DNA of 62,356 nt, filler included, from Dehalococcoidia bacterium (GTDB lineage: Bacteria > Chloroflexota > Dehalococcoidia > DSTF01 > JACRBR01): NCBI GenBank assembly GCA_041494685.1. It is 2 parts of 2 records of this genome, joined end to end, with 100 filler letters (N's around TTAATTAATTAA, not from the genome) between each part and the next. Parts side by side here need not be neighbours in the genome. Positions count along the whole stretch, not along the records: positions 1 to 31,183 come from JBGQBE010000040.1; 1 more part is not named here. One strand, written 5' to 3'. Position numbers and translations under genes: made by a program. Of this stretch, positions 4,464 to 23,512 are shown one piece after another; position 1 is the first letter of the stretch; each line of letters opens with the position of its first letter. The notes beneath the pieces are model-generated. The model was not told the DNA's origin. It did not search any database and worked only from the letters and a program-made list of their open reading frames with translations.

Positions 4464-4540
4464 CCCAGGGTAGCCAAGCGGCCTAAGGCAACGGTCTGTA
4501 AAACCGTGTATCGGTGGTTCGAATCCACCCCCTGGGACCA
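4464..4540 (+). tRNA. tRNA-Tyr(GTA), atypical (C1:G72, 5-nt variable loop); integration site of the downstream element
   Basis: CCCAGGG/CCCTGGG acceptor stem, A73, CCA, anticodon arm ACGGT-CTGTAAA-ACCGT, variable loop GTATC, T-arm GGTGG-TTCGAAT-CCACC. Confidence 0.93.
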
Positions 4541-4553
4541 CACTCGTAGAATC

Positions 4554-4582
4554 GAAATCGGCGCTTTTCGGGCGCCGATTTC
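4554..4582 (+). terminator. Hairpin terminator after tRNA-Tyr
   Basis: GAAATCGGCGC-TTTTCGG-GCGCCGATTTC, a perfect 11-bp stem. Confidence 0.7.
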
Positions 4583-4599
4583 TGCATTGTGCACGCCGC

Positions 4600-4622
4600 T
4601 GACAGCAACCGTGACAGCAACC
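4600..4622. repeat. Tandem direct repeat, probable integrase arm-type binding sites
   Basis: TGACAGCAACC twice (4600, 4612) between the tRNA 3' end and the integrase stop. Confidence 0.65.
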
Positions 4623-4653
4623 CGGGCGGACGAGTACGGACGACGATGGACGG

Positions 4654-5784
4654 CTACCCCGATATCGCTGGCCCGGCGAGGATCGCGTCGAATGCTTCCG
4701 CCGCCTGCTGCTGCATGGTCATCGACACGTGCGAGTAGAGGTCGAGCGTGGTGCTGATGCGGGTGTGCCCGAGCATCTCGGAGACCACCTTGGGGTGCAC
4801 GCCGCGCCCGAGCAGCAGCGTCGCCGACGTGTGCCGTAGATCGTGGAAGCGCATCCGTGGCAGACCGGCCCGTTTAAGCAGGGGCTCGTACGACCGCCGC
4901 AGCCCACTGGCGGTGATCGGCCGGCCAGTGGCGGAGCAGAACACCAAGTCGCCGTCGTCCCACGCCGCACCGATCCGCAGCCGTTCCTCCGCCTGTGCGA
5001 CGCGGTGCCGTCGCAGCGCGCCGATCGGCTGCTTGGACAGCGCGACCTGACGTCGTGACCCCGGCGTTTTCGGCTCCATGATCCGCAGACCATCTGGCGT
5101 GGCCTGCATCGACCCGCGGACCTGAAGCATGCCGGCGTCGAGGTCGACGTCGCGCCAACGCAGCCCGAGCAGCTCGCCCTGGCGCATGCCCGTCGTCACC
5201 GCGAGCACGAACAACGCCTCAAGCCGGCTGCCGGCAGCTGCGTCGAGGAACGCTCGCGCCTGCTCACCGGACAGCGTCGCGATCTCGAAGTGACGGTTGC
5301 GCAGCGGATCGACGAGGTCGGCGACGTTACGGTTGACCAGGCCCCAGCGGACCGCGTTCGAAAGCGCCTTGTGAATGAGCGCGTGCAGGTGGTTCACCGT
5401 CGTTGGCGAGAGACCCGCGTCCAGTCGCGACGTGTACAGCCGCTGCAGATGCTGAGGACCGAGCTTCGTCAGTGACAGCGAGCCGAGATCTGGAACGACG
5501 TGGAGGCGTACGAACTGCTCGTAGCGCACGAACGTGCGCGGGCGTAGCGACGGCCGCACGGCGTCCAGCCATTGCTTGAAGAACTGACGTACCGCCTGTC
5601 GTGGACCCGTGACGAGCGTCCCTTTCGCTTGTTCGTCGAGCGCGGCGTGCAATTGCTTCGACACCTCGCCGCGGGTCCTGCCGAGGAAGTGCTTGCGCTT
5701 GCCCATGCCGACGCCGATCGAGGCGCACCAGCGGCCATCCTTTCGCTGGTGGATGGAGCCTTCACCGTTTGCGCGCTTACCCAC
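4654..5784 (-). CDS. int: Tyrosine recombinase / site-specific integrase
   Basis: N-terminal GKRANGEGSI arm-binding domain. Catalytic residues intact: GMRQGE, PKT, HDLRH, LGH, DLYSH. Start is GTG 5784 or 5793. Confidence 0.96.
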   Translation of the reverse strand: MGKRANGEGSIHQRKDGRWCASIGVGMGKRKHFLGRTRGEVSKQLHAALDEQAKGTLVTGPRQAVRQFFKQWLDAVRPSLRPRTFVRYEQFVRLHVVPDLGSLSLTKLGPQHLQRLYTSRLDAGLSPTTVNHLHALIHKALSNAVRWGLVNRNVADLVDPLRNRHFEIATLSGEQARAFLDAAAGSRLEALFVLAVTTGMRQGELLGLRWRDVDLDAGMLQVRGSMQATPDGLRIMEPKTPGSRRQVALSKQPIGALRRHRVAQAEERLRIGAAWDDGDLVFCSATGRPITASGLRRSYEPLLKRAGLPRMRFHDLRHTSATLLLGRGVHPKVVSEMLGHTRISTTLDLYSHVSMTMQQQAAEAFDAILAGPAISG

Positions 5785-6802
5785 GCCCTTCACCTCTCCT
5801 CCTCTGCTTCTCGCGCCGCCTGTAGTCTGCGACCGCATCCTTCATGGGTGCAGAGGAGTCTCGACAACCATCGCAATAGCGTCGGCGCCCCTCGGTCGGT
5901 CGACGCCTCGGAACATATGGTTCGCCACACGAGCTGCACAGCGCGAGTCCCTCGGTTTTGGCGACCCGCAGCATCAACTGCACGCCGACGGCGGCGAACA
6001 AGCCTCCTCCTGCCATCGTGACTTGCGGCTGGTCCATCTCCCACGAAATAACGGGCCGGACGTTACCGAGCTGGACCCACCGAAAGACCGCTTCGGCCAG
6101 ATCTTCGCGTTCCGATTGGACCACGTCTGCGACGCGTTTCCTGTCGCATGAATCCGCCAGCAAGTCCGCAAAGGGTGTCCTTGTGCCCCGGAGTAGTTCC
6201 TCGCCGTATGGCGGTTCATCATCAACGCGGTAGGTGGTTCCGAACGGGTAAATGCTCTTCGCTGGCAGGCCCTCGAGTTCCCAGATCGTTAGTCGCCATC
6301 GGTCGAGGCCATCCCGCATGATTGTCTGCCAATCGGCGGCTTGGCCCGGCTCGTTGCCATATAGCCGGATGGCAATGCGCAGTATCGCCCTCGCCTGCGC
6401 GGACCAGAATCTCCACGTGGAGGCCGGGGCTGCCGGGTCCTCTCCGAATACGAACGGCTGACAGCGGTGACGAAGGACGGCCCCCGGATCCCCCACGGAG
6501 GTACCTACGTGGCTGACCGGAAGCATGTGATCATCGCAGACGAGCAGGGGCCCCCAATGTTCGGCGTACTGAGCGATGCGGTCGGCCGATGCGTCGGCGA
6601 GGCGCAAGAAGCCATCAAGCATGCCGTCGCCGGCACGGACATCCTCCCAGCCGTGTTCCGATGAACAAACTATCCAGCCTGCTGAGGAGCTCGCCGTTAC
6701 GGGCGCTTGCCAGGTACCGAAGTCCATAGGGACGTCGAGGCGGAACTTCGAGCTGCCCATATCCCTCAAGTCACTCAACCGCCCGCTCGCCGAGATTGTC
6801 AT
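5777..6802 (-). CDS. Hypothetical element regulator with C-terminal CGNR-like zinc finger
   Basis: C-terminal CSSC...RRRYCDGC followed by a basic helix. Divergent from xis and overlaps the int start. Confidence 0.65.
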   Translation of the reverse strand: MTISASGRLSDLRDMGSSKFRLDVPMDFGTWQAPVTASSSAGWIVCSSEHGWEDVRAGDGMLDGFLRLADASADRIAQYAEHWGPLLVCDDHMLPVSHVGTSVGDPGAVLRHRCQPFVFGEDPAAPASTWRFWSAQARAILRIAIRLYGNEPGQAADWQTIMRDGLDRWRLTIWELEGLPAKSIYPFGTTYRVDDEPPYGEELLRGTRTPFADLLADSCDRKRVADVVQSEREDLAEAVFRWVQLGNVRPVISWEMDQPQVTMAGGGLFAAVGVQLMLRVAKTEGLALCSSCGEPYVPRRRPTEGRRRYCDGCRDSSAPMKDAVADYRRREKQRRRGEGRG

Positions 6803-6803
6803 A

Positions 6804-6837
6804 CGATAGTTATATCGAATGTAGTGCGAACTGTCCA
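6804..6837 (-). promoter_or_regulatory. Leaderless promoter with overlapping palindrome
   Basis: TGGACA-17nt-TATAAC ends 6 nt before ATG 6802. CGATA-GTTA-TATCG inverted repeat at 6804-6817. Confidence 0.55.
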
Positions 6838-6918
6838 CACATACGCGAAACTCGTCCGTGGCCCACCGCCGTCCGAGCGCCACCCGGGTCGAGTGTGGCG
6901 ACGCAGCTAGAGGTGAAC

Positions 6919-7119
6919 ATGGAGGAGAAGCTACTCGTGGATGTCGCCGCAGCATCCCGCCTCTTGGGCTTGTCGCGTTCGTTCACCTACAGCCGGCTGA
7001 TACAGACCGGGCGGCTTCGCTCATACAAGATCGGAGGTGCCAGGCGCGTGATTGTCGAGGACCTTCATGAATTCATCCGCAGGCTGAAGGAAGAATCAGA
7101 AGAGGCAGCACATGGATGA
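6919..7119 (+). CDS. Excisionase-like helix-turn-helix protein
   Basis: 66 aa, LLVDVAAASRLLGLSRS..Y.LI..GRLRSYKIGGARRV pattern, GAGGTG SD. Confidence 0.88.
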   Translation: MEEKLLVDVAAASRLLGLSRSFTYSRLIQTGRLRSYKIGGARRVIVEDLHEFIRRLKEESEEAAHG

Positions 7120-7299
7120 CGCGCGCCGCTGCTCGTCGATAACGGCGTTGGTATCGAGCGCCTCGCGTGTGGCACGAGCCAGCATGGCGTCCCTGCCGCG
7201 CTCCTGCCTGTGGACGGCACTCAGGCGCCGCATCGGCAATTGCCAGATCTGTGTGGAGTTGGAGTCATCGGAGCCGCCCGCCTGATTGAGGGGTGAAAG

Positions 7300-7737
7300 A
7301 TGGCGCGTCGCGAGAGCTGGATAAAAGCGCACGGCGAGGACAACAACACGGCCGCGCTCATTCGCTCGAGCTGGGCGGCGCGCGGCGTCTGGTACGCATT
7401 GCAGCTCCACACGATGGATCGCTGCGACACGCCGGGCGTGCTGACGCGCAGTCGGAAGGCGATTGCGATCGCCGATCTCGCACTTGAGCTACACACCGAC
7501 GAGCAGACGCTGCGAACGGCGATCGACGAACTGCTCGGCGCTGGCGGGCTGCTCGAGCGACGAGAGGGCGGCGTGCTCGCATTCCCGAACTGGAACAAGC
7601 GGCAAGCCGGAACTGCGACGAGCAACCGCGACGCCTGGCGGACAACCAAGCGTCGACAGCGAGAATCGAAACGCCTTGGTGTGGATCAGTCTGCACACGC
7701 CGACGGGCCTACGCCCCAGCTGAGGAGTCTGAAGTAA
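7300..7737 (+). pseudogene. Phage replisome-organizer-like replication initiator, N-terminal part only
   Basis: SWIK...W..L...G.L...LA...A..EL...G.L.FPNWNKRQ...S..R..KRRQRE pattern typical of phage initiator N-domains. Ends right after the basic segment. Confidence 0.6.
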
Positions 7738-8008
7738 TCCTCAATATCATCTCCTTCTTCTTCTTCCAACACGGTCCAGCGTCGTCCCATGGACGTCCCG
7801 TGATGTCCACCGGACAACCAGACTCGCTTTGCGACAGCTCCCCACGGTGCTGCACGAGACGGCGACCTCGGGGGAGCGCGGCACCGCACGGAGCCCGCGT
7901 GCACCGCCGCAATCGGCTCTTGCGATGCCAGGAGTGAGCGCGCGAGGTTCCATCGGGCGAGCGGATGCTCATGCTGGCCGAATCGTGTCGGCGGAGGGGT
8001 CGGACCGC

Positions 8009-8839
8009 CTATTCGGGCTTACGCCAGATGCGTATCTCGGTATCCCGTGTGCGTTCGGCGAAGAGTCCCGACGGCGATGCTTCCGCAAGACTGCGCCGCA
8101 CCTCGGCGTCGAAGTCCCCAAGCCGATCTCCGAAGAGGTGGGGCGCCGCGCTCGAGCGCGAGTAATACGAGGCGAGCACGTCATCCACCGTCCGGATAAG
8201 TACCTGCCGGCCGACGACGCGCACGCGCTGGACCGGCCCGAACCCCGCCCGCACCACGACGGCGTCCTCGCCGTCCGGCGAGGTGGTTCGGATACCCTGG
8301 CCGGCGCGCCTCTCAGGTCCGAGGTAACGGTGGAGGATCTCGGTGATGGCCTTGCGTGGCGGCAGTGGGTGCGGAAGGGGGCCCCCGGGCTCGGGCACGC
8401 CGTCGGATGTCTCGGTGACCTGAACGAACGCCCCTCCCGGCTCCAGCATTGCGAGCATGGTTGCAGCGACGGCGTCACGGTCCATCCAGTGAAACGACCG
8501 CGAGAAGGTCGCCACAAGGAACGTCCCGAGGCCTGCGGGCAGGTCTTCCCCGCGCGCCTTCACCCAGCGGGCGTTGCCGATGTTTCGCTCGCCGGCCAGT
8601 CGCTCGGCCTCGTCGAGCATGTCTTGATCGGGATCAACACCGACGACCTCCTCGAAGAGGTGGGCGAAGCAGAGCCCGATGACGCCCGGCCCGCAGCCGA
8701 CGTCGATCAGACGGCCGCGGCCATCGAGGTCGAGTGCGCGTGCCGCTTCGTCAGCGAGACCAGCTGCGTACGGATGGCGACCAAGCATGTAGTACCGCGC
8801 GGCGCCGCGGAAGAGTGTCTCGTCCCATTCCCAGTCCAT
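8009..8839 (-). CDS. Class I SAM-dependent methyltransferase
   Basis: LIDVGCGPG, GVDPDQDML, SFHWMD, LEPGG. Confidence 0.9.
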   Translation of the reverse strand: MDWEWDETLFRGAARYYMLGRHPYAAGLADEAARALDLDGRGRLIDVGCGPGVIGLCFAHLFEEVVGVDPDQDMLDEAERLAGERNIGNARWVKARGEDLPAGLGTFLVATFSRSFHWMDRDAVAATMLAMLEPGGAFVQVTETSDGVPEPGGPLPHPLPPRKAITEILHRYLGPERRAGQGIRTTSPDGEDAVVVRAGFGPVQRVRVVGRQVLIRTVDDVLASYYSRSSAAPHLFGDRLGDFDAEVRRSLAEASPSGLFAERTRDTEIRIWRKPE

Positions 8840-8865
8840 CCAATCACTCTACATGAGCGACCGCG

Positions 8866-10098
8866 ATGAGCATGAGAACCCGCAAGCCAAACCCGACAGA
8901 CGCCCGCGTCCAAGCGGTCGCCCTCGCGGCACTGCATCCGGCCGCCTGGAACCCGCGCACGATCAGCGACGAGCGGTTTCAGAACCTCTGCCGCTCGATC
9001 GAGGCCGATCCCGAGTTCCTCTGGCGTAGACCGATCCTCGCCCAGGCCGACGGCACGATCTATGCCGGCAACTTGCGGTATCGCGCCGCTCACCAACTCG
9101 ACATGACGTCGGTGCCAGCGATCATCGAGGACGTGTCAGACCAGCTCGCTCGGGAGCGTGCGCTTCGCGACAACGCCCAATGGGGTGATTGGGAGGGCGA
9201 CGAACTGGCGGCGCTGCTGGACCGGCTGCGGGCGGACGGCAGCGACGTCGATCTCCTGGGGTTCGACGAACGCGAGTTGCAGCAACTGCTCGACCGACTC
9301 ACGGGGCCAGTCCTGGCAGATCCCGACGACGTGCCGCCCCTGCCTGATGAACCAGTCACGCAGCCCGGTGACCTTTGGCTTCTTGGTGACCACCGCGTGG
9401 CCTGTGGTGACGCCACTGATCCCCAGACGTTCGCGACGCTCATGGACGGCGCGCTGGCCTCCTGCATGTGGACGGACCCGCCCTACGGCGTCGACTACGT
9501 CGGAGGCACAAAGGACAAGCTGACGATCAAGAACGACAACGCCGACGGCTTGAATGCACTGCTCGCCGGCGCGTTTGCCGCGATCGATCCGGTGCTGGCC
9601 GACGGCGCGGCGATCTACATCGCTCATCCAACCGGACCGCTGTCGATGACGTTCATGAGCAACTTCGTCGCGCGTGGCTGGCGGTTCCACCAGAGCCTGG
9701 TTTGGGTGAAGGACTCGCTCGTCCCAGGTCACAATGACTATCAGATGCGGCACGAGGGCGTGCTGTTCGGCTACAAGGCCGCACAGGGGCGCCGTGGCCG
9801 CGGCGCGCGGGGCTGGTACGGCGATAACAGCGCCACGTCGGTGTTCGAGGTGCCACGGCCGAAAGCGTCGCCCGACCACCCAACCGCCAAGCCGGTCGCG
9901 CTGGTCGCGGCGATGATCAACAACAGCAGCCGCAGCGCCGAGATCGTCCTCGATCCGTTCTTGGGATCGGGCAGCACGCTGATCGCCGCTGAGCAGTTGG
10001 GCCGGCGATGTTTCGGCGTGGACGTCGATCCTCGCTACGTCGATGTTGCCCTCCGCCGCTGGGAGCGGGTGACGGGAAGGACGGCTCAGCGTGCCTAA
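8866..10098 (+). CDS. ParB-like N-terminal domain fused to N6A/N4C DNA methyltransferase (phage-type)
   Basis: L.PAAWNPR..., AGNLRYRAA, DN..WGDW (ParB-like); TDPPY, HPTAKP, DPFLGSGST (beta-class methyltransferase). Confidence 0.92.
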   Translation: MSMRTRKPNPTDARVQAVALAALHPAAWNPRTISDERFQNLCRSIEADPEFLWRRPILAQADGTIYAGNLRYRAAHQLDMTSVPAIIEDVSDQLARERALRDNAQWGDWEGDELAALLDRLRADGSDVDLLGFDERELQQLLDRLTGPVLADPDDVPPLPDEPVTQPGDLWLLGDHRVACGDATDPQTFATLMDGALASCMWTDPPYGVDYVGGTKDKLTIKNDNADGLNALLAGAFAAIDPVLADGAAIYIAHPTGPLSMTFMSNFVARGWRFHQSLVWVKDSLVPGHNDYQMRHEGVLFGYKAAQGRRGRGARGWYGDNSATSVFEVPRPKASPDHPTAKPVALVAAMINNSSRSAEIVLDPFLGSGSTLIAAEQLGRRCFGVDVDPRYVDVALRRWERVTGRTAQRA

Positions 10099-10235
10099 TG
10101 GTGTCTTTCGCGATCTAGCTGGACGCACGTGTCGCTCGTCCGGGACGGACGACACGACCATGCCCAATGCGTGCGCCGCAACTCGATCCGAGTCGTGCTG
10201 ACGAGGCGGGAGTCATTCAGAGGAGCGGTGGCCGA

Positions 10236-10505
10236 ATGTCTGTTGCGTCAGAAGACTTGGAGGAACCGTGGCCTGCCTTTGAGCTGGTCGTCGGCCGGTG
10301 TGTCGCCGAGATTCACGAGCCAAGCGAGGAGCCCCTCCAATTTTGCGTTCGCATCCGTGGCATCAGCCTCTGCGGAGACTGCATCGACATCTACTCCTGG
10401 GGCTTCGATGAAGCGGTTGGAAGGTGGCGCGCACGCCAACGCGAAGTCGACCGCGTGCCTGCACAGGAGGGTGGACAGCATCAATCGGGTCGGACCGAAG
10501 AGTGA
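10236..10505 (+). CDS. Hypothetical protein
   Basis: AGGAG upstream of ATG; 89 aa with a CxxC (CGDC). No recognised family. Confidence 0.35.
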   Translation: MSVASEDLEEPWPAFELVVGRCVAEIHEPSEEPLQFCVRIRGISLCGDCIDIYSWGFDEAVGRWRARQREVDRVPAQEGGQHQSGRTEE

Positions 10506-10529
10506 CGGCGGCGGAGCACGCCGACTCGA

Positions 10530-11066
10530 TTGGAGCAGGCGCTCATCCGCGCCGGCACTGCGGCTCAGATCGCACCTCGTGGCGCGCCGCTGGCCGCTGC
10601 GATGGGCATCGACCTGGTGCCCGGCGCGCGCATCCCGGTAGGCGACACGTTGCAGCTGAGCGGCCGCCCTGAGGCCTACGCCATCGGCGATATCGCGGTT
10701 CTGCAAGGGCCCGACGGCAACCCGTATCCGATGCTCGCGCAGGTCGCCCTGCAGCAGGGAGATGTCGCGGCCCGGAACATCTTGCGCGCGGTGCGCGGCG
10801 AGCCGCCGCTATGCTTTCGCTATCGGGACCGCGGCACGATGGCGACGATCGGTCGCCGCATGGCGGTGGCGCACGTCTTCGGGCTGCAGTTCAGCGGCTT
10901 CTTTGCGTGGGCCCTGTGGCTGGTGGTGCACCTGCTGGCGATCATCGGTCTGCGCAACCGCGCGCTGGTGCTGCTCAACTGGACATGGAACTACTTTCGC
11001 TATGACCGCGCCAGCCGTCTCGTCGCGGACGACATCTCGCGCGGCGAAGAAGCTCGTCGGGCGTGA
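10530..11066 (+). pseudogene. C-terminal fragment of type II NADH dehydrogenase
   Basis: YAIGDIA, PMLAQVALQQG, FRYRDRGTMATIGR, AWALWLVVHL...GLRNR. Both N-terminal GxGxxG nucleotide-binding regions are missing. Confidence 0.85.
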
Positions 11067-11081
11067 TGCAACCTTGCCAGT

Positions 11082-11534
11082 TCACACGCTCCCGGCGGTG
11101 TCGGGCGCCTTTTCCAGCTCCCGCAGACGCCGCCTCATCGCACGGTCACGCTCGAAGCGCTCTGTGATATCACGCGCCTGCGCCATAGCCCCGACTACGG
11201 CGCCATCACCTCCGTGTACGATAGCGAAACTCAGTTCGACGTAGATTTCGGAGCCGTCTTGTTTGAGCGCTCGCGTCGGAAGGGACTGGCCGCGATACTT
11301 CGTATCGCCGGCGGCGAGCGCGCGGTCGTAGCCGGTCCAGTGCGCCTCGCGGAGCTTTTCGGGAATGATGATATCCAGGTTCTGGCCGATGGCCGCTGCC
11401 GCCGGATAGCCGAAGATGCGTTCCGCGGCCGGATTCCAGACCCGGACGACGCCGTCGCGGTCCGCGAAGATCATCGCGTCGGGCGCCTGGACTACGAGAC
11501 TGGCGAGGTCAACGGCATTACCGTCCACATTCAC
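11082..11534 (-). CDS. Stand-alone PAS domain (S-box) protein
   Basis: APDAMIFADRDG..RVWNPAAERIFGY...GQNLDIIIPE...H, ending in RDITER. Confidence 0.88.
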   Translation of the reverse strand: MNVDGNAVDLASLVVQAPDAMIFADRDGVVRVWNPAAERIFGYPAAAAIGQNLDIIIPEKLREAHWTGYDRALAAGDTKYRGQSLPTRALKQDGSEIYVELSFAIVHGGDGAVVGAMAQARDITERFERDRAMRRRLRELEKAPDTAGSV

Positions 11535-11974
11535 GGTGAGCGTCCTTCCGCAAGTAGCTGCTTAACGACGAGATCAAGCATACACATGCCAGTCCGCTTT
11601 GCGACCCCGGAGTAGCGGTGGCCACCGAGCGTAGCGCGGCGGCCCTTGGCAACCAGCGCGGCACGGCGGAGCGACCCAGTCTCACTTCGTGGTGAGCGCT
11701 CCGCCGTTTCATTGCCCATCGCAGCCGGCCGACCGAGATCGAGCCATTCGGCAGTTGAGAAGCCCCCTTCATAGATCGATGATCGTGGACGTTCGGAGCG
11801 CGGCTCCTCGAATGTCGTTTCGGCCCGGCCAGCCTGGCGGTGTCCTCTTGTGAGGAATGCGATCACCACGCGCGGGTCCCCTCTCGCTCCGGACCGCCTC
11901 TGGCGCCCGTCGCGGACCGTCACATCAGGCCGGCTTCTCGGCGCCACCATCCGCTCATCGTGATGGCCGAACAT

Positions 11975-12017
11975 ATGGTTTAGCAAACCACTGCTCTATC
12001 CTCTGAGCTACGGGGGC
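11975..12017 (-). pseudogene. 5' half of a tRNA (Arg-like body, GCT in the anticodon position), truncated after the anticodon stem
   Basis: GCCCCCG-TA-GCTC-AGAGGATA-GAGC-A-GTGGT-TTGCTAA-ACCAT, with no T-arm or acceptor 3' strand following. Confidence 0.75.
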
Positions 12018-12132
12018 GTAGGCGCACCCCGCACACTACGTCCTCATGGTGCGTGGCATTGCGACGGCTGTCCTCGCGCGTTCCGTTGTAGAGCCTGATG
12101 GTAGGGAACCCGCAGACGGTTACCGTCGGCGC

Positions 12133-13515
12133 TCAGCTCGCGTAGGTCACCGGATCGAGTGAGAGTGCGAGGCTCCGTTGGGGCTCGCCCAAGCCCCGAA
12201 GGCTTGTGTTTTCGCGGGCGACGCGGGCGAACAGCTCGAGCGCGGCGACGTCATCGAGGGCGCTCGTGTCGTGTCGTAGGTGCTCCTCAAAGAGCCTGCA
12301 GCGCAGTGCGCGAACAGTGGCACCGTGCCAGATCGACGCGTTGAGCTCGGTGTCGCCGTAGAACGACCGGTTGGCTACGTTGGCAGACCCGATCGTGCAC
12401 CACGCGTCGTCGATGAGCCCGATCTTGGCGTGCACGTACACACTCTGGTACTCGCCACTACTACGCTGGGTTGCGAGACCGGTAAGCGTGAAGTGCTGGA
12501 ACTGCCCAAGCGCTCCGAGCGCCCCGAAGAAGCCCTCGTTGCGTGGGTCACGGCGCGCCTGAGCCATCTCCGCATTCGGTTCGATCGGCACGACAAACGC
12601 CACGTGGACGCCGCGACGTAGCGCGCGGCTCAGTGCGTCGAGGATCTGTGGCGACCCGATGGCTTGGTCTTCAATGTAGATCGTGCGCTCGGCCGTATCG
12701 ATTGCCTGGAGATACTGGTCGGCAATGCTGGTCTCACCCCGTTCTATCGGAAACATCTGGCCGCCCGGCGTGGACGTGCCGTCTGTGTAGCGGTCGCGCC
12801 GCACCGTGCGCTGGATCTGTACAACCGCGTCACCTGCGTTCGGCGACGCTCGTTCGGGAAAGCGCAGCTGATCTTGGCTCGCAGCATCGGGCCAGACCCC
12901 GTCCTGCGCGTCGCGGTCACTCGCCTCGTTCCAGCGCTGCACAAAGTTGTGGTGCACGTCGCTGGCGGACGGACCGCTCAACTCTACGTAGACGTCGTGA
13001 GTGTTGCCGGCGTCGGTTGGTGCATGGCCCGGCGACACCATCGATCCCCGGGTCAAATTGATGCCTCCGACAAACGCGATCTCGTCGGCTCGGCCTGCGT
13101 CGATCAGCCAGCTCTTCTGGTGTTGGCAGTACGCCCCATGAGCGCGGTCCCAGCGCGCCAGAAAGCGCGAGCGGCGCGCCTGCAACATGGCACGTTCAGC
13201 TGGCGTGCCCGAAAAGTGCTTGCCAGGGTCTATCTGCTCGAGTTCGACGTGCCGCCAGAAGATCACGCGCACGTCGAGGCCTCGCTCTACCGCGCGATCG
13301 AGTACATCGAACAGGTTGCCGCGGCCGTCCGGCAGCTGGAACATGGGCACGTAAAACGCGACCGTGACCCAGACGCTGTGGCGCGCGGCTTCAACGGCTT
13401 CGCAAATGCGCCTAAACGCCGGCTCCCCATCCACGAGCGGTCGCACCGCGTTACCGGCGCGGATAGGGTACGAGCCAGAGTCGGTGAACGGGATATGGGA
13501 TGCGTCGCGTCGCAT
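12133..13515 (-). CDS. Phospholipase D family protein (cardiolipin synthase-like)
   Basis: Two HxKxxxxD motifs: HQKSWLID...GGIN and HAKIGLID...GSAN. Confidence 0.9.
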   Translation of the reverse strand: MRRDASHIPFTDSGSYPIRAGNAVRPLVDGEPAFRRICEAVEAARHSVWVTVAFYVPMFQLPDGRGNLFDVLDRAVERGLDVRVIFWRHVELEQIDPGKHFSGTPAERAMLQARRSRFLARWDRAHGAYCQHQKSWLIDAGRADEIAFVGGINLTRGSMVSPGHAPTDAGNTHDVYVELSGPSASDVHHNFVQRWNEASDRDAQDGVWPDAASQDQLRFPERASPNAGDAVVQIQRTVRRDRYTDGTSTPGGQMFPIERGETSIADQYLQAIDTAERTIYIEDQAIGSPQILDALSRALRRGVHVAFVVPIEPNAEMAQARRDPRNEGFFGALGALGQFQHFTLTGLATQRSSGEYQSVYVHAKIGLIDDAWCTIGSANVANRSFYGDTELNASIWHGATVRALRCRLFEEHLRHDTSALDDVAALELFARVARENTSLRGLGEPQRSLALSLDPVTYAS

Positions 13516-13726
13516 CGGAGCCTCCTACGTTGGTTCGCGGTGACGGGCCGGGCTCGCAAGCTTGGGCGCGTGCCAGCGAGGTTCGACAGAAGCAAGTATA
13601 AGGTACCGAACGAACCTAGTCTTCACCGATCCGCTCGCCTCCATCACCATGACCAAATCGTGAGCGATGACCTTAAAGAGCCGACACTCGAAGCCGGGGG
13701 CCCCGCCGGTGTGCTATGTTCCCGCT

Positions 13727-14512
13727 ATGATGCCCGACGTTGATCCTGTCGCTCATAACCGTGCCGCGTGTGACAAGCGAGTGGAGCAAGGCGACGAATG
13801 GACGAGGCCCGTCGGCCCCGACGTGATCGCTCGTGCCCAAGTCAACGACTGGTCCGTCGTCCTCATCGGCTACGAGCCGACGCCGCGCGACTGGTTCCCC
13901 GCCAACCTCCACGGCGTAGACATCCTGTGCCTCGCATCCGGCGGCGGCCAGCAGGGCCCCGTCCTCGCGGCTGCGGGCGCGAACGTCACCGTCTTCGACA
14001 ACTCACCGAAGCAACTTGCACAGGACGCATCGGTCGCTGATCGCGAGGGCCTCGACCTCTGTACCGTGCTCGGCGATATGCGCGACCTCGGCGTGTTCGC
14101 GGACGCGAATTTCGACCTAGTGTTTCATCCGGTCTCAAACCTCTTCTGCCCCGAACTCGGGCCGGTCTGGCGCGAATGCTTTCGCGTCCTCCGTCCGGGC
14201 GGGTCACTGCTCGCCGGCTTCATGAACCCGGATCTTTACGTCTTCGATATGGAGGCGCAGGAGCAGCGGGCCGAGCTCGTCGTGCGCCATCAGCTCCCGT
14301 ATTCCGACCTCACGCACCTCTCGCAAGAAGAGCGCGAACGCCTCGTCGGGCCGGACGCGCCGCTCGAATACAGCCACACCATGACGGAGCAGATCGGGGG
14401 GCAGCTCGCGGCGGGTTTCGTGCTCACCGCATTCGCTGAGGCGCCGCACCACGCCGGCATCACCGCGAAGTACATGCCTGGCTATTTTGCGACGCGCGCG
14501 CTCAAACCGTAG
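13727..14512 (+). CDS. Class I SAM-dependent methyltransferase
   Basis: LCLASGGGQQGP, FDNSPKQL, GDMRDL, HPVSN, RVLRPGG. Confidence 0.9.
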   Translation: MMPDVDPVAHNRAACDKRVEQGDEWTRPVGPDVIARAQVNDWSVVLIGYEPTPRDWFPANLHGVDILCLASGGGQQGPVLAAAGANVTVFDNSPKQLAQDASVADREGLDLCTVLGDMRDLGVFADANFDLVFHPVSNLFCPELGPVWRECFRVLRPGGSLLAGFMNPDLYVFDMEAQEQRAELVVRHQLPYSDLTHLSQEERERLVGPDAPLEYSHTMTEQIGGQLAAGFVLTAFAEAPHHAGITAKYMPGYFATRALKP

Positions 14513-14558
14513 ATGTAGGCGGCCCCTACGCGGACGAACGGTCTCCCGTGCTCTCGCC

Positions 14559-14580
14559 AACACGATGGTGACATCGTGTT
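14559..14580. terminator. Hairpin between convergent genes
   Basis: AACACGATG-GTGA-CATCGTGTT. Confidence 0.45.
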
Positions 14581-14618
14581 CGGCGGTTCCGCCGGTCACG
14601 CGGCGCCCGAGGTGGACT

Positions 14619-16475
14619 CTACGAACGTGACCGCAGCGGACGCGGGCGATGAGCGCGCACGCGGCGCCATCGAAAGACGCGCTCGCGCCGCTGCTCGTGA
14701 TGGAGTTGCCGCGTTCGAGCGGTGAGCAGATCGCTCAGCGCGATCATGCCGGCGAGCTTCACCGCTGAGCCACGCTCCACGACGGGCAACCTGGTGAAGC
14801 CGGACTCGGCCATGCGGAACGCGATCGCGCGGAGCGGTTCGTCGGGGTACGCGACGACGGGGTGCTCATGAATCAGCTCGCGCAGGAGCTGGCCGTCCAC
14901 ATCGGCTCCGGCGGCGAACTCGCGGAGGTCACCACGAGTCACGACGCCCACGAGCGTGCCCTCGCGATCGACGACTGGATAGAGCCGATGCTCGCGCCCG
15001 GAACGGAACCTCAGCGATCGTGTGAGCTCGCGGAGGCTCTCGAGTGCATCGAGCGCCAGGACGTCCGTGCGCATCACGTCACGGACGAACGTCGTCTCGA
15101 GAGGATCGATCGCGTACTCGCGGCTCAGGTGGAGGCCGCGGCGACTGACCTTCTCTGTGAGGATGGAGCGGCGCATGACCAGGACGGTGAAACCATACGC
15201 CACGACGACCGCGACCAGCAGCGGCGTCAGCACGTTCACGTCGTGTGTTAGTTCCAGAGCGAAGATGATGGCGGTAAAGGGCGTCCTCATCGTCCCGCCC
15301 AGCACCGCGGCCATGCCGATGAGCGGCCAGAAGCCCGTACCTTCGTTGGGCAGGACCGACGCCATGAGGCCGCCCATCGCGCTGCCGATCATCAGCAGCG
15401 GCGCGAGCACGCCACCCGATGTCCCCGACCCCAGCGACACCGCCCAGATCAGTGATTTGACAATCAAGATGCCGGCGATTAGGCGCATCGACGTATCTTG
15501 CTGCAACAGAGCGCCGATGTTGCCGTAGCCGACGCCGAGCGCCTCGGGGAAGATCAGACCGCCAAGACCAACCACGAGCCCGCCGATGGCTGGCCACCAC
15601 ATCCAGTGAATCGGCAGGCGAGCAAACGCGTCCTCCGATGCGTACACCGATGCCGTTAGCGCGGAGGCGACCAGGCCGGCCAGCAGCCCGACGAGCACGC
15701 AACCCGCGATGCCCGGCAACCCGATGTACGCCGGATGGGCCGGCACGGGAAAGAGCGGGCCAGCGCCGATGACGCTCCTCCGGACGACCGCCGCGACCGC
15801 GCTCGCGAGGGCGACCGGGATCAGGCTGCGTGGCTTCCACTCGAACAACAGCAGCTCGACCGAGAGCAGCACTGCGGCTATCGGCGACGCGAACGTCGCC
15901 GACATGCCGCCAGCAGCGCCCGCGACGAGCAGCGTCTTGCGTTCGGCGCCGGTGAGATGGAAGAACTGGGCGATGATCGAGCCGAACGCGCCGCCGGTCA
16001 TGATGATCGGTCCCTCGGCTCCGAACGGACCGCCTGAGCCGATCGAGATCGCTGAGGAGAGCGGCTTGAGGATCGCCACACGTGGCTGCATTCGGCTATC
16101 GCCGATCAAGATCGCTTCGAGCGCCTCCGGGATGCCGTGGCCGCGGATGCGTTCGGAGCCGTAGCGTGCCATGAGTCCGATCACGAGCGCACCGGCGACC
16201 GGCACGACGATTGCCAGCGCGCCGAGGTGGTTGCCGGCAGGACTAACCAGCGCCGTGCCGAGGCGCTGGTAGTAGAAGAGGTTCGTGAAGAGACCAATGA
16301 GGCGCAGCAACGCCAGCGCAAGGAATGCGCTCGCGACGCCGATCGGGATGGCGAGCGCGGCGATCGGGATGACCCGAGGCGTTAGGGCGAAGTCTGCGAG
16401 CCGTTCGTCGTCGGCGTCGTCCTTACCGCGTCGCGTCAGGTCAGCCGCGCGTTTCGCCAGACCGGCAAGCGTCAT
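14619..16475 (-). CDS. ClC chloride channel/transporter with two CBS domains
   Basis: GHGIPE, GGPFGAEGP, GTSGGVLAP signatures and a C-terminal CBS pair. Confidence 0.94.
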   Translation of the reverse strand: MTLAGLAKRAADLTRRGKDDADDERLADFALTPRVIPIAALAIPIGVASAFLALALLRLIGLFTNLFYYQRLGTALVSPAGNHLGALAIVVPVAGALVIGLMARYGSERIRGHGIPEALEAILIGDSRMQPRVAILKPLSSAISIGSGGPFGAEGPIIMTGGAFGSIIAQFFHLTGAERKTLLVAGAAGGMSATFASPIAAVLLSVELLLFEWKPRSLIPVALASAVAAVVRRSVIGAGPLFPVPAHPAYIGLPGIAGCVLVGLLAGLVASALTASVYASEDAFARLPIHWMWWPAIGGLVVGLGGLIFPEALGVGYGNIGALLQQDTSMRLIAGILIVKSLIWAVSLGSGTSGGVLAPLLMIGSAMGGLMASVLPNEGTGFWPLIGMAAVLGGTMRTPFTAIIFALELTHDVNVLTPLLVAVVVAYGFTVLVMRRSILTEKVSRRGLHLSREYAIDPLETTFVRDVMRTDVLALDALESLRELTRSLRFRSGREHRLYPVVDREGTLVGVVTRGDLREFAAGADVDGQLLRELIHEHPVVAYPDEPLRAIAFRMAESGFTRLPVVERGSAVKLAGMIALSDLLTARTRQLHHEQRRERVFRWRRVRAHRPRPLRSRS

Positions 16476-16939
16476 CTGGTCGCCGTCTCGGTCTCGCGGA
16501 CGCGCCGTGGCGGGCCTTCGGGCGGCGCGTCGCGCATGAGCGTCTTCAGTGCGCGAGCGAGATCAGGCCCAGCGGAGCGGAGTTCGTCGCGGTGGTGGAT
16601 CGAAAGGCGCCTAAGCTTCTCAGCACCCTCGCCGGTGAGCTGGACGAAGACCTGGCGCCGGTCCACGTCCCCGCGCACGCACCGCACGAGTCCGCGCTCC
16701 TCGGCGCGGTCGATGAGTTCGGCGGTGCTGTGGTGTCGCAGCTGGAGGCGCTCTGCAAGCTCTCCGATCGTAGCTTGACGACCTTCCGGCAAGCCTCTGA
16801 TGGCGAGCAGGAGCTGGTGTTGCTGCGGCTCCAAGCCGGCGCTCCTGGCTATGTCTTCACTGACACGTAGGAAGCGGCGGAGTTGATATCGCAGGTCCGC
16901 CAACGCTCGGTAATCGGCGTCCGTGACGGGCTGCTTCAT
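16472..16939 (-). CDS. MarR family transcriptional regulator
   Basis: LADLRYQLRRFL..SE, QHQLLLAI, LAERLQLRHHS, DRRQVFVQLT. Overlaps the ClC start (ATGA). Confidence 0.9.
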   Translation of the reverse strand: MKQPVTDADYRALADLRYQLRRFLRVSEDIARSAGLEPQQHQLLLAIRGLPEGRQATIGELAERLQLRHHSTAELIDRAEERGLVRCVRGDVDRRQVFVQLTGEGAEKLRRLSIHHRDELRSAGPDLARALKTLMRDAPPEGPPRRVRETETATR

Positions 16940-16961
16940 CGCGCGGTCTCGCTTGAGTAGT

Positions 16962-16974
16962 ATCGTGACACGAT
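16962..16974. promoter_or_regulatory. Palindromic operator, probably bound by the MarR regulator
   Basis: ATCGTG-A-CACGAT in the divergent MarR/PRC intergenic region. Confidence 0.55.
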
Positions 16975-17028
16975 CTATTATGGAGGTGGCGTCGATGAGC
17001 GTCAAGGCGCCGTTCGCGGAGGCGGGCG

Positions 17029-17697
17029 ATGTACACGACGATGCGGGAGCTGCGGGGTTGGACGATCCGAGGAACCGATGGCGGCGACGCCGCCAAAGTC
17101 GATGACATCCTGTTCGACGATCGAGCCTGGCGCGTCCGTTACGTGGTCGCCGAAACGGGTAGCTGGCTTCATCGGCACAAGGTGCTCCTCTCGCCCAACG
17201 CTTTGGGCAGATTACGCGGCCAAGCTCACTTCGTCCCGGCGTTGTTGACCGCCAATGAGATCGCGCATTGCTTGCCTGTTGACGCCGATCCGCCGGTATC
17301 AACTCGAATGGCGGCGCAGCTGGGCGATCTCGTCACGCTCGCGACGTATTGGGTGGGAGGATTCGGTGTGCCGTATCTCGCGAGTCCGGTGACGTCGCCG
17401 CTGCCGCGGTCCAAGCCTCAAACGGGCGATCCGCACCTTCGAAGTGCGACATGGCTCATGGGATATCACACAGTGGCGCAGGACGGCGAGATTGGCTCGT
17501 TGGAGGATCTCCTCATCGACGACGAGGGCTGGTGCCTGCGCGATCTGGTCGTGCAAACGCACGGCTGGCCGCATCACAAGGACGTACTCATCGCACCGCA
17601 CTGGGTGAGCCGCATCAGCTGGGCGATGCGTACGGTCCGCATCGAGCTGCCGCGCGAGCGCGTCGTGGGAGCTTTATCCGGGCCTTCACTGAGCTGA
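17029..17697 (+). CDS. PRC-barrel domain protein (two barrels)
   Basis: LRGWTIRGTDG..KVDDILFDDRAWRVRYVV, DPHLRS, GYH..AQDGEIG..EDLLIDD. Confidence 0.88.
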   Translation: MYTTMRELRGWTIRGTDGGDAAKVDDILFDDRAWRVRYVVAETGSWLHRHKVLLSPNALGRLRGQAHFVPALLTANEIAHCLPVDADPPVSTRMAAQLGDLVTLATYWVGGFGVPYLASPVTSPLPRSKPQTGDPHLRSATWLMGYHTVAQDGEIGSLEDLLIDDEGWCLRDLVVQTHGWPHHKDVLIAPHWVSRISWAMRTVRIELPRERVVGALSGPSLS

Positions 17698-17765
17698 CTC
17701 CAAACCGGCACAACCGCAGCCGCCGTCAGGCGCGCCAATCGAACACCATGGCACAATCGTGAGCG

Positions 17766-18380
17766 TCAGGAAGCCTGCACCCGCCGCCTCACGTCGCTGT
17801 TGTACACCGCGAAGCGTTCTATGAGTCGGCTCACGCCAGTGTACTTGTAAGCTTCAATGTACCGGCGAATCGCGTCGAAGAATGCTTGAGTGTGAACGGA
17901 TTCGGTGAGATCGGCGGGCGCGGTGAGCCGTGAGTTTATCCAGTAGTCAAGGTACGGTCGGAATCCGTCGAGCGTCACCAAGCCGGCTTCGATGAAGTGG
18001 TCGAATCGTTCGAGACCGTCGAGGAAGGCGTCGAAGCAGTCACGGATCGCAAACTCGTAGCCCTCAAAATGCCCAGGTTCGTCGGCCACCGGTCCGTGGC
18101 CTCCAAGGTGGTCGCGACGAGGTTCGAGCGACTTGCACAACATCTTGTCAGTGACGTATACAAGACCCCCGCCCGGAAGAATGGGAACATTCAGATCCGT
18201 CCAGTCGAGCAAGAGCATTGCATGCTTCACGGCTTCGTTCGCTTCGAATTCCTTGACTTGAATTGCCACGAACTCCGCGCGCTTCCAGCGTTGGGCGTTG
18301 GCGTACTGCCGAAGGCCCGCGAAGAACGCGGCAGCGCCCGTCACTAGACCCGTAATGGTGATCCAGTTGCCCGCATCCAT
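17766..18380 (-). CDS. Hypothetical protein with N-terminal TM helix
   Basis: 204-aa ORF, GGAGGA SD, hydrophobic N-terminus, codon usage less GC-biased than core genes. Confidence 0.7.
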   Translation of the reverse strand: MDAGNWITITGLVTGAAAFFAGLRQYANAQRWKRAEFVAIQVKEFEANEAVKHAMLLLDWTDLNVPILPGGGLVYVTDKMLCKSLEPRRDHLGGHGPVADEPGHFEGYEFAIRDCFDAFLDGLERFDHFIEAGLVTLDGFRPYLDYWINSRLTAPADLTESVHTQAFFDAIRRYIEAYKYTGVSRLIERFAVYNSDVRRRVQAS

Positions 18381-18674
18381 TAGTCCTCCGATACATGCTG
18401 AAGCGCTGTTTCGAGAACTCCGACCCCGCGGAGTTGGGTGGCGCTTTCAGCAAATCGTAGCGGAGTGCGCCGAACGCCCATATGCCGGAACCACCCGCCG
18501 CCCAAGAGCCTACAGTACAGAGAGCACAATGGCGCGCAGCACGCTAGCTTCCCGCCCGCGATTGCCCGGTGCCAAACGCTCAGATGTCACGACGACGCAA
18601 ACGGTCGCGATGTCGTTCTCACAGGCGGCGGCGCCACAGGATCGTTACACTCGCCTGCGCCGGCACGCGTGTCT

Positions 18675-19526
18675 TCAAGGCCCGTGGCAACGCTTGAACT
18701 TCTTGCCCGACCCACAGAAGCAAGATTCGTTACGACCTATCTTAGGTGGGCGTTTCACTGGGGGCGCGCTCGGCCGCGTGTTCGCCGCAGGGCGCACAGG
18801 CGCTCCGCCGAACGAGAATGCCGTGCCGACATTGTGAAATGTGTTGCCTCGCATGACGACCCCGGGCAGCCGCACTTCGTCATCCGTGACTGATGACAGT
18901 TGGTTGCCTGAGACGAAGAAGTCCGCCCGGTGGATGACTATCTCCGTCGGTGGAGAGAATGTTGCATCGAAAATGATGTCGCCGAGGTCGCGCCGAAAAG
19001 TCAGGCGTTGGCCGACGAGTTGAATGTCCCACGTATCGATCCAATACACCAGCTCACTTCGATCGATGAGCATGAGTTGGTGGTCGTCGGCGTCACGGAG
19101 ATCGAGAGTGAGGAGAAGGTGCTCGTCCTCATAGTCAAACCCCACCAGGCAGCGCCCAGAAACTTCGAGCACGCACATCCGTGCGCCATCGATGAGATCG
19201 GAGGAGTGGACGTTTGACGCCATCCTTATGCTGCATTGAGAACCCGAGTAGTTGAGGGCATAGGGCGCGGAGGCGCCGAGGCGTACGTTGTGTGGCTGGA
19301 CGTTGGCCTTCTCGACATCAGGCGTTGGTAAGAGGCCGTTCGTACGTTCTTTGTGGTGCCTGTCGCACAGAAGCGTTATGCGCCCTGGGTCATTGACATC
19401 GGTGGGACCGTCTAGGTGATCGTACTCGTAAAGCGGCAGACCACAGATCACGCATCCAAAGCCGCATCGTTGGCGGATCTGGCGTTTAAGCGGCTCTGGG
19501 ATTGGCACGCGTTTCGGCCGCGGCAT
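18675..19526 (-). CDS. HNH-type nuclease with C-terminal SEC-C zinc motif
   Basis: RQRCGFGCVICG...YEYDH...LLCDRHH at the N-terminus and IGRNESCFCGSGKKFKRCHG at the C-terminus. Confidence 0.8.
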   Translation of the reverse strand: MPRPKRVPIPEPLKRQIRQRCGFGCVICGLPLYEYDHLDGPTDVNDPGRITLLCDRHHKERTNGLLPTPDVEKANVQPHNVRLGASAPYALNYSGSQCSIRMASNVHSSDLIDGARMCVLEVSGRCLVGFDYEDEHLLLTLDLRDADDHQLMLIDRSELVYWIDTWDIQLVGQRLTFRRDLGDIIFDATFSPPTEIVIHRADFFVSGNQLSSVTDDEVRLPGVVMRGNTFHNVGTAFSFGGAPVRPAANTRPSAPPVKRPPKIGRNESCFCGSGKKFKRCHGP

Positions 19527-20052
19527 ACGAACTTCGCCTCTAGCTACCGACGTTTGTAACCGGAGTCCATGAAGGTCGGCTTGGCCGCCGCCTTCACCCG
19601 TGTGTGGGTATCTGCCGGGAAATTCCGTTCACTCTACCGGACCGCTCGCTAGCTATGGACAGACGTCAGCCGAGCGCGACGGGCTTGGCCCGTAGCGGCA
19701 AAGCGACCCCTCGGACCCACACCATCGCAGAATGGTGCGCGGGGTTCCTGAGAGACCTAGCGCCGAACCGTGAACTCGCTGAAGCTCTTGGCGCGCGATC
19801 GATTCAGCCGATCCGATAGAATCGCAGGCGGGTCGCGCGCATCCTTAGGACCAAGGGGGGCCACGGTGACGACCAAGCCCGATATCTTGGAACGGTTCAG
19901 CCACTGTCACTCCGTAATGGTGACCGCCCAGGACTGGGGGTACGTGAAGGTAGCCGTCGAGCCGGCGGCGTTTCCGGAGACTGTGCCGATCGAGGCGGTG
20001 GTACACGAGATAGGCGCTGCCAGGAAGGACCCGGTGGTTCCAGTGGGGATCA

Positions 20053-20180
20053 ACACGCCCCTGCGCCAGATCCAGCAGCTGCTCGGACACTCGAGCCTGG
20101 CGACGACGCAGATCTACCTGGACGTCACGGCCGCGGACCTGGAGCAGGCGATCACAGCGCTTGACACGCTCTCCGGCTAG
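20053..20180 (+). pseudogene. C-terminal remnant of a second tyrosine recombinase
   Basis: PLRQIQQLLGHSSLATTQIYL (box II H and Y), joined in frame to unrelated upstream sequence. Confidence 0.8.
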
Positions 20181-20278
20181 TGGACGGCGATGGCGATCAG
20201 CACGCCCCAGAAGACGGGCGTGGCGAAGAAGCCGATCCAGCCGATCCAGCCCAGGTTGGGGATGTAGTGATTCCTCAT
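20177..20278 (-). CDS. Small membrane protein (33 aa)
   Basis: MRNHYIPNLGWIGWIGFFATPVFWGVLIAIAVH, with GC3-rich codons. Confidence 0.45.
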   Translation of the reverse strand: MRNHYIPNLGWIGWIGFFATPVFWGVLIAIAVH

Positions 20279-20322
20279 GCCATCAGCGTACCGAGCACGG
20301 GCAGGCAGACGCGCGCCCTCTG

Positions 20323-23507: not shown

Positions 23508-23512
23508 TCGAC

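Follow-up and report, generated by a model that had tools for sequence, protein, structure and literature searches.

How does a bacterium come to carry a tyrosine tRNA with the identity elements of archaea and eukarya, and which enzyme would charge it? The question is raised by a gene in the window, i.e., the whole stretch of 62,356 nt that was analysed, from a genome of a Dehalococcoidia bacterium (G000). In textbooks the split between C1:G72 and G1:C72 is a barrier of tRNA identity between the domains, and the orthogonal pair used most widely for genetic code expansion is based on it. In the available text of Tsunoda et al. (2007, PMC1934993) this difference is given as the origin of the missing cross-charging between bacterial and archaeal/eukaryal systems, the bacterial TyrRS C-terminal domain is described as binding the long variable arm, and C1:G72 is read by Arg174, Lys175, and Arg132 of the Methanocaldococcus jannaschii enzyme. 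Bacteria with a C1-G72 tRNA-Tyr and a TyrRS of the archaea/eukarya type have been described from the CPR only, namely from Parcubacteria, Microgenomates, WS6, and WWE3, and the switch has been interpreted as lateral transfer involving DPANN-like archaea (main text of Mukai et al., 2017, Life 7:8, PMC5370408). The word Chloroflexi has no occurrence in that main text, and full-text literature searches, in which the same paper was covered by its main text, returned no paper linking the switch to Chloroflexi, Chloroflexota, or names beginning with Dormibacter-. It is highly probable that the gene in the window encodes a working tyrosine tRNA, predicted to be charged by the sole, archaeal-type TyrRS of its genome, and that this pair has replaced the ancestral bacterial one.

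The tRNA-Tyr gene and the TyrRS of its genome

1807..1884, minus strand: tRNA-Pro(CGG), an ordinary chromosomal neighbour 2.6 kb upstream of tRNA-Tyr (ARAGORN)
4464..4540, plus strand: class I tRNA-Tyr(GUA), 77 nt (ARAGORN, Rfam RF00005, covariation, no variants in four runs)

ARAGORN calls a tRNA-Tyr(gta) at 4464-4540 on the plus strand, and Rfam matches RF00005 over the whole model (1-71) without insert, at 64.2 bits (gathering score 29, E 1.9e-12). By direct reading the acceptor stem is CCCAGGG/CCCTGGG, which gives C1:G72, and the 3' end carries discriminator A73 and an encoded CCA. The anticodon loop reads CTGTAAA (U33 G34 U35 A36 A37 A38) and the variable loop, GTATC, has 5 nt, i.e., the molecule has the class I shape without a long arm. 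The archaeal/eukaryal identity set, C1:G72, A73, G34-U35-A36, and a short variable loop, is present in full, and the earlier note, which had described the CCA end, the GUA anticodon, the first pair, the discriminator, and the 5-nt loop, was right in every detail. It had also raised the concern that the GTA and C1:G72 bases might be assembly errors. Contigs from four public sediment-metagenome runs contain no variant within 4464-4540, and among 22 distinct versions of the tRNA from independent assemblies C1:G72 and C2:G71 occur in 22/22, A73 and G34-U35-A36 are invariant, and compensatory changes are seen at 10/20 stem pairs. As runs and homologues agree in this way an assembly error is excluded, and the sequence is confirmed as that of a genuine gene. 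tRNA-Pro lies near tRNA-Tyr in at least two other family members too, which argues for a chromosomal, syntenic place of the gene. A promoter and terminator scan of 4250-4750 returned 0 sites of either kind; a TATAAA is seen by eye about 10 nt upstream of the tRNA and nothing is drawn from it. Among the 24 runs listed no RNA run occurs. G34 probably lacks the queuosine modification, as Tgt (PF01702) was not found in the genome, and this has little bearing on the main finding.

The genome is a Chloroflexota MAG of 3.29 Mb in 87 contigs with 68.3% GC, from a soil or sediment bacterium, and is 97.58% complete and 1.32% contaminated. Its bacterial nature is seen from a tmRNA and a bacterial-type TrpRS, and the closest relatives of its genes, among the matches listed, are titled Dehalococcoidia or Chloroflexota bacterium in NCBI. 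ARAGORN called 49 tRNAs in addition to the tmRNA, with one tRNA-Tyr only and no canonical long-arm gene, the presence of which the earlier note had proposed to check. Asn and Ile tRNAs were not called, i.e., the tRNA set of this 87-contig MAG is incomplete, so that not finding a second tRNA-Tyr proves nothing on its own.

Searched in six frames with PF00579, the genome gave two class Ic synthetases. One is a bacterial TrpRS of 347 aa (TIGR00233, 275.5 bits) and the other is a TyrRS, encoded by a 417-aa ORF on a short contig of 3.6 kb (C77, 68.2% GC) that is separate from the tRNA-Tyr contig (C40). With the archaeal equivalog NF006330 this TyrRS reaches 398.7 bits (cut-off 220), and it stays below the cut-off of the bacterial tyrS profile TIGR00234 (87.2 vs. 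113.8 bits), of which it covers positions 5-212 of 406. Its best PDB match is the archaeal TyrRS 2cyc (375 aa), aligned end to end with an E of 4.2e-118, and the bacterial TyrRS 1h3e matches with an E of 7e-4 only. PF00579 is the sole Pfam domain, and the C-terminal S4-like domain of bacterial enzymes, about which the earlier note had asked, is absent. The class I motifs HxG (HLG) and KMSKS are intact and invariant in 81/81 and 83/83 aligned homologues, as is the DQRK motif (83/83). The Arg-Lys pair of this motif may correspond to Arg174-Lys175 of the M. jannaschii TyrRS. Judged by its profile and domain matches, the TyrRS of the genome is an archaeal-type enzyme without the S4-like domain. 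A bacterial TyrRS and a canonical long-arm tRNA-Tyr were not found in the genome by ARAGORN, PF00579, a tyrS search, or blastn.

Distribution of the pair and loss of its bacterial counterpart

The order was sampled with 93 genomes including G000, of which 36 (35 + G000) belong to its own GTDB family, f1, and 57 to four other families. An archaeal-type TyrRS over the cut-off was found in 28 genomes, all of them in f1 (28/36, i.e., 27/35 + G000; 0/57 in the other families), and the short-spacing pattern of a class I tRNA-Tyr in 29/36 genomes of f1 and 0/57 elsewhere. The 39–41-nt pattern of a long-arm tRNA-Tyr matched in 52/57 genomes outside f1, one of these matches (G486) not being tRNA-like. 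Bacterial tyrS, counted at E <= 1e-40, is present in 53/57 genomes outside f1 and within f1 only in genus g225 (3/3) and in G435; at this threshold it was not found in 31/35 other f1 genomes. The two archaeal-style genes are co-distributed: 25 of the 28 genomes with the archaeal TyrRS have the short tRNA pattern, 3 are without any pattern and 0 have the long one only. Five f1 genomes have neither type of TyrRS, all five being 64–91% complete, and of the eight discordant f1 assemblies all but G434 are at most 91% complete; G434 (96% complete) has the archaeal TyrRS and no match to a tRNA-Tyr pattern. The pattern match in G437 was rejected as a tRNA-Tyr; it is a 3' partial copy in which no full tRNA was called and is counted as an att repeat.

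A second family, f27, which belongs to another class of the same GTDB phylum, has the archaeal TyrRS in 15/17 sampled genomes and in 30/34 of a second sample. Its TyrRS groups with sequences titled Dormibacterota, and the four sister families of f27 have the archaeal TyrRS in 0/117 genomes. When 401 genomes were sampled evenly across the phylum, it was found in 16/401, in f1 and f27 only. Some of the genomes counted are flagged as unpublished (G425 in f1, G272 and G173 in f27, and the negatives G227, G145, G038, and G344); without them the numbers are 26/34 for f1 and 13/15 and 28/32 for f27, and no conclusion changes. The archaeal-style pair is nearly fixed in whole GTDB families of free-living Chloroflexota with 2–4 Mb genomes. 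The inference of the earlier note, that the lineage may use an archaeal-type TyrRS and tRNA-Tyr, is supported, with this pair in place of the bacterial one: the genome holds this pair alone, its relatives share the trait, and no bacterial tRNA-Tyr or TyrRS was found in it.

The place from which the bacterial tRNA-Tyr was lost can be identified. Sister lineages (G401, G412, and G414) have an 88-nt tRNA-Tyr with G1:C72 and a long arm between tRNA-Thr(UGU) and tRNA-Thr(GGU). Genus g225 and the sister family f84 keep the same 88-nt G1:C72 form in this slot, and in g225 and G401 the two Thr genes are separated by 180–207 nt with tRNA-Tyr in place. On contig C28 of G000, Thr(tgt) and Thr(ggt) lie 66 nt apart with no tRNA-Tyr between them. 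The order Thr-spacer-Thr is contiguous in 32/36 family genomes, a tRNA-free spacer of 28–85 nt was found in 30/30 family loci examined, and blastn of the long-arm tRNA against G000 gave T-loop matches of at most 26 nt only. The ancestral long-arm tRNA-Tyr gene is deleted from the Thr-Tyr-Thr cluster and not merely unassembled.

G000 contig C28:9487-9552 (L129/L132), also loci L133-L161: Thr-Thr spacer left after tRNA-Tyr loss, a G/C-rich hairpin

In a MAFFT alignment the ancestral tRNA-Tyr has its two acceptor-strand ends opposite the spacer motifs GTGG(T/C)GGG and CC(A/G)CCACGACG, and the spacer ends are like the old acceptor stem (GGTGGG...CCCACC, GGCGGG...CCCGCC). The hairpins have energies of -22.7 to -35.4 kcal/mol in 7 tested. 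That the hairpin is a relic of the lost tRNA-Tyr is suggestive only, as the motifs are short and GC-rich, and it may have been retained as a processing element of the tRNA transcript. Genome G432 has a long-arm tRNA-Tyr beside a tRNA-Thr that is unlike the one of the family, and its Thr-Thr slot is also empty; the contig with this long-arm tRNA-Tyr is probably foreign.

Linkage of tRNA and TyrRS, and an island at the tRNA

A near-identical class I tRNA gene was found in f1, f27, Dormibacterota-titled bins, Anaerolineae, Aggregatilineales, and another Chloroflexota group, and also in single bins titled Actinomycetes and Candidatus Angelobacter, the labels of which may be wrong. The relatives of the TyrRS that were examined are the best 80 of 201 matches, and at 11 of these 80 loci a C1:G72 tRNA-Tyr lies at most 3 kb upstream of the archaeal-type TyrRS on the same strand. 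The distance is within about 400 nt in 9 of the 11, one of the 11 is the WWE3 long-arm form, and the adjacency is also found in G312. In G164 the TyrRS is preceded by the 3' half of the tRNA only (positions 28-77 plus CCA), and a full tRNA-Tyr copy without encoded CCA lies 36 kb upstream of the TyrRS. Read from its arrangement, this is the signature of a 36-kb island whose integration into the tRNA has split the cassette. One f1 genome, G435, has both tyrosine pairs on a single contig of 269 kb (loci L162 and L163):

G435 contig C28:10784-12209, and 83735-84826 / 158931-159007: the two tyrosine pairs

Just upstream of its bacterial tyrS, G435 has a long-arm tRNA with G1:C72 that differs from the type native to the order, and in G435 too the ancestral Thr-Thr slot is empty; its archaeal side consists of an archaeal TyrRS and a class I tRNA. 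Judged by gene content, two tyrosine pairs that do not cross-react occur naturally together in the genome of G435. A separate observation concerns the WWE3 genome G504, which has two long-arm tRNA-Tyr genes, one with C1:G72 and one with G1:C72 (L056/L127 and L128), the former 1.5 kb upstream of its archaeal-type TyrRS. An Rfam scan at gathering thresholds of window positions 1-10000 and 18 TyrRS/tRNA loci found no T-box leader, but only tRNAs and one c-di-AMP riboswitch. The latter (RF00379, 54.1 bits, L015:55-169 on the minus strand) lies at a distance of about 3 kb from a close relative's TyrRS and has nothing to do with the main finding.

A quick tree of 81 TyrRS sequences, built by maximum likelihood with the best 80 of 201 matches and no distant outgroup, places the TyrRS of G000 in an 18-row clade of its own family with a support of 100. 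All 61 non-CPR bacterial rows fall on one side of a branch (SH-aLRT 93, unstarred), and the neighbouring clade holds DPANN archaea and two CPR-like rows (95, starred), with an open fork at the three main bacterial subclades.

The tRNA-Tyr of the window is the insertion site of a genomic island:

4492..4540, plus strand: att core, 49 nt, tRNA positions 29-77 (exact-match search)
4541..31183, no strand: genomic island at the tRNA 3' end, at least to the end of contig C40 (Pfam, GC, empty site)
4654..5838, minus strand: tyrosine recombinase (integrase) gene, 114 nt downstream of the tRNA (PF00589 E 2.2e-29, PF14659 E 8.3e-12)
8866-10098: ParB-N/DNA methylase fusion in the island

The att core is repeated exactly once elsewhere in the genome, at contig C10 75420-75468 on the minus strand, as a direct repeat flanking the island, and the island is placed at window positions 4541-31183 and C10:75420-77700. 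By Pfam the cargo includes methyltransferases, a PLD-like protein, a ClC channel, a histidine kinase, a carboxylesterase, an AlkZ-like glycosylase, an APH-family kinase, and TrkA. Contig C40 has a GC content of 65.5% against 68.3% for the genome, the lower value being due to the island, and GC3 is lower than in the genes upstream of the tRNA. A 947-nt contig from run X4, with 5 differences, leads from the upstream sequence across the tRNA and on into what follows the repeat on C10, i.e., it represents an empty site. The element thus resembles tRNA-targeted integrative islands, with an integrase next to the tRNA, the tRNA 3' end repeated directly, a lower GC content, and an empty site elsewhere, and in this respect it is ordinary. 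From its position on the chromosomal side of the island and its intact state in the X4 empty site, tRNA-Tyr is a target of the element and was not brought by it. Many family genomes have 2–3 copies of the tRNA-Tyr 3' part, 10–94 kb apart, which makes this tRNA a frequent integration target, and the partial copies are preceded by a conserved ACGGACGG...ACGA element end; together these repeats point to a family of elements specialised on this tRNA-Tyr. For the tyrosine pair the island is relevant only because such insertions appear to separate the tRNA from the TyrRS, as in G164. Contig C40 is followed at window positions 31184-31283 by N runs around a 12-base TTAATTAATTAA linker that joins contigs C40 and C41, and as positions 31284-62356 are this different contig, features are not to be read across position 31183.

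An integrase 114 nt downstream and a copy of the last 49 nt of the tRNA on C10 are what one would expect if the gene were an accessory tRNA of a mobile element or an att copy, the real bacterial pair having been missed in an incomplete MAG of 87 contigs from which some tRNAs are missing. We regard this as very unlikely and as largely refuted already by the data given above: the slot of the bacterial tRNA-Tyr is assembled and empty in G000 and in 30/30 family loci, bacterial tyrS was not found in 31/35 other family genomes and the archaeal type is present in 27/35, and the tRNA is placed on the chromosomal side of the island and kept intact in the empty site. That the tRNA and/or the TyrRS contig come from an archaeon or a CPR bacterium and were misbinned is extremely improbable, although the TyrRS contig is only 3.6 kb long, MAG bins can hold foreign contigs, and the relative G432 carries the foreign-looking long-arm tRNA-Tyr contig. 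The GC contents of C40 (65.5%) and C77 (68.2%) are set against 68.3% for the genome, and the gene beside the TyrRS is, by eye, an acyl-CoA-dehydrogenase-like ORF. Relatives of the TyrRS with 61–85% identity are found on long contigs or closed chromosomes titled Chloroflexota or Dormibacteraeota, e.g., of 4.39 and 3.34 Mb, and the DPANN tRNA-Tyr that was compared is quite different (30/51 arm positions, G37).

Origin of the tRNA and probable course of the replacement

The tRNA itself was compared arm by arm with possible relatives, 17 positions being counted in each of the D, anticodon, and T arms (51 in total), and the comparison rests on about 50 informative positions. Identity to the tRNA-Tyr of G000 is as follows:

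Genome's own tRNA-Cys: D 14, anticodon 12, T 11; 37/51
g225 long-arm tRNA-Tyr: D 9, anticodon 14, T 13; 36/51
CPR (WWE3) long-arm C1:G72 tRNA-Tyr: D 11, anticodon 15, T 15; 41/51
DPANN archaeal tRNA-Tyr (G37): D 11, anticodon 11, T 8; 30/51

The best outside match is the CPR long-arm C1:G72 tRNA-Tyr (41/51), and no kinship to archaeal tRNA-Tyr was found, the one archaeal tRNA compared having 30/51 vs. 36–41/51 for bacterial Tyr or Cys tRNAs. The body of the tRNA looks bacterial in make and not DPANN-archaeal, because it has an encoded CCA and A36-A37-A38 and a MiaA is present in the genome, and only the enzyme would be archaeal by descent.

The earlier note had described the D and anticodon arms as tRNA-Cys-like and had suggested recruitment of another tRNA. 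The description holds for the D-arm (14/17), a type seen in only 3/49 tRNAs of the genome (Tyr, Cys, and one odd tRNA), and fails for the anticodon arm, with 12/17 for Cys vs. 14–15/17 for Tyr. It seems rather unlikely to us that the gene is a re-assigned tRNA-Cys, in which the anticodon went from GCA to GUA by a single change and the acceptor end was rebuilt for an incoming archaeal TyrRS. Like the anticodon arm, the T-arm is nearer to that of bacterial-type tRNA-Tyr (13–15/17) than to that of tRNA-Cys (11), the CPR long-arm C1:G72 tRNA-Tyr is closer overall (41/51 vs. 37/51), and in one Chloroflexota subclade (L125/L126) the acceptor and anticodon arms of the gene are combined with a D-arm of another, ordinary kind. 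Furthermore, C1-G72 forms with and without the V-arm occur in one CPR genome (main text of PMC5370408), which suggests loss of the arm from tRNA-Tyr. By these counts tRNA-Cys ancestry fits no better than arm loss from a C1:G72 long-arm tRNA-Tyr; the Cys-like D-arm is real in the alignments, but does not single out tRNA-Cys as the ancestor. Recruitment of tRNA-Cys would concern the origin of the tRNA alone and is compatible with replacement of the pair.

The odd tRNA is called Ala(tgc) by ARAGORN and lies outside the window, at contig C11:35092-35168 on the minus strand (locus L131:193-269). It has C33 instead of U, U73 as in tRNA-Cys, and G3:C70 instead of the alanine G3:U70, and its D-arm is like that of tRNA-Tyr at 15/17 positions. 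No counterpart was found at E <= 1e-10 in the other 92 genomes of the order, and it could be a pseudo-tRNA or part of a strain-specific element.

The replacement of the bacterial tyrosine pair, of which the order of events and the donor are inferred from the genomes compared, may be pictured in the following way. The archaeal-type TyrRS and its tRNA would probably have come in together as a cassette of two genes, the tRNA being placed immediately upstream of the TyrRS gene, an arrangement that survives in Dormibacteria-type and other Chloroflexota lineages. Both pairs would then have coexisted for a time, as in G435, which is possible because the two systems do not cross-react. Finally the old pair would have been lost, the long-arm tRNA-Tyr by deletion from the Thr(UGU)-Tyr-Thr(GGU) cluster and the bacterial tyrS by disappearance from the genome. 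These events would have taken place inside the GTDB family of the window, after or apart from the branching of genus g225, which keeps the bacterial pair. The archaeal-type TyrRS is without the S4-like domain for gripping a long arm, the tRNA is without the long arm, and A36-A37-A38 would suit the MiaA of the host.

The closest known parallel is the CPR (main text of PMC5370408), where bacteria likewise combine a C1:G72 tRNA-Tyr with a TyrRS of the archaea/eukarya type, where the tRNAs also look bacterial in origin, and where forms without the V-arm are known too, from one Roizmanbacteria genome. Most CPR forms keep the long arm, however, whereas the Chloroflexota tRNA is fully class I. The hosts differ as well, in that the trait is nearly fixed in whole GTDB families of free-living Chloroflexota with 2–4 Mb genomes, and unlike in the CPR case the deletion scar, the tRNA-TyrRS cassette, and the two-pair intermediate are all visible. 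With the archaeal TyrRS-tRNA-Tyr pairs (2cyc, 2cya, 1j1u) the pair shares the enzyme family and the lack of a C-terminal S4-like domain, and also the tRNA identity elements C1:G72, A73, and the anticodon (available text of PMC1934993). It differs from them in A37 within A36-A37-A38, in the encoded CCA, in its bacterial host, and in the low identity to the one DPANN tRNA-Tyr compared (30/51 arm positions; G37 in the latter). The TyrRS-tRNA-Tyr pair of E. coli has been replaced by an archaeal pair in a laboratory construct, and this demonstrates that, in principle, an archaeal pair can be the only tyrosine pair of a living bacterium (available text of Iraha et al., 2010, PMC2887954). Unlike this construct, the replacement in Chloroflexota is natural and lineage-wide.

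One may speculate further that tRNA-Tyr(C1:G72) and TyrRS form a self-contained, naturally orthogonal cassette that moves between soil and sediment bacteria, i.e., between Chloroflexota classes including Dormibacteria and perhaps into the lineages of the bins labelled Actinomycetota and Acidobacteriota. It would displace the resident pair by way of a two-pair intermediate, be favoured by making the host insensitive to agents against the bacterial pair, e.g., natural TyrRS inhibitors or tRNA-Tyr toxins, and later be split by tRNA-targeted islands. In this full extent the scenario is unlikely, and we offer it as conjecture. It is on the other hand well supported by the gene content of these genomes that the archaeal tyrosine identity set occurs in bacteria outside the CPR, which would extend a published phenomenon rather than found a new one.

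Annotation pipelines with bacterial isotype models will mis-score this tRNA. The pair is fitted to bacterial expression by its encoded CCA and A37 and could be a useful start for the engineering of orthogonal pairs. For the biology of these bacteria the finding means that the steps by which an essential synthetase/tRNA pair is replaced, i.e., cassette, coexistence, and deletion scar, can be read from their genomes, and that the identity barrier appears to have been crossed, beyond the reduced symbionts of the CPR, by whole families of ordinary free-living bacteria.
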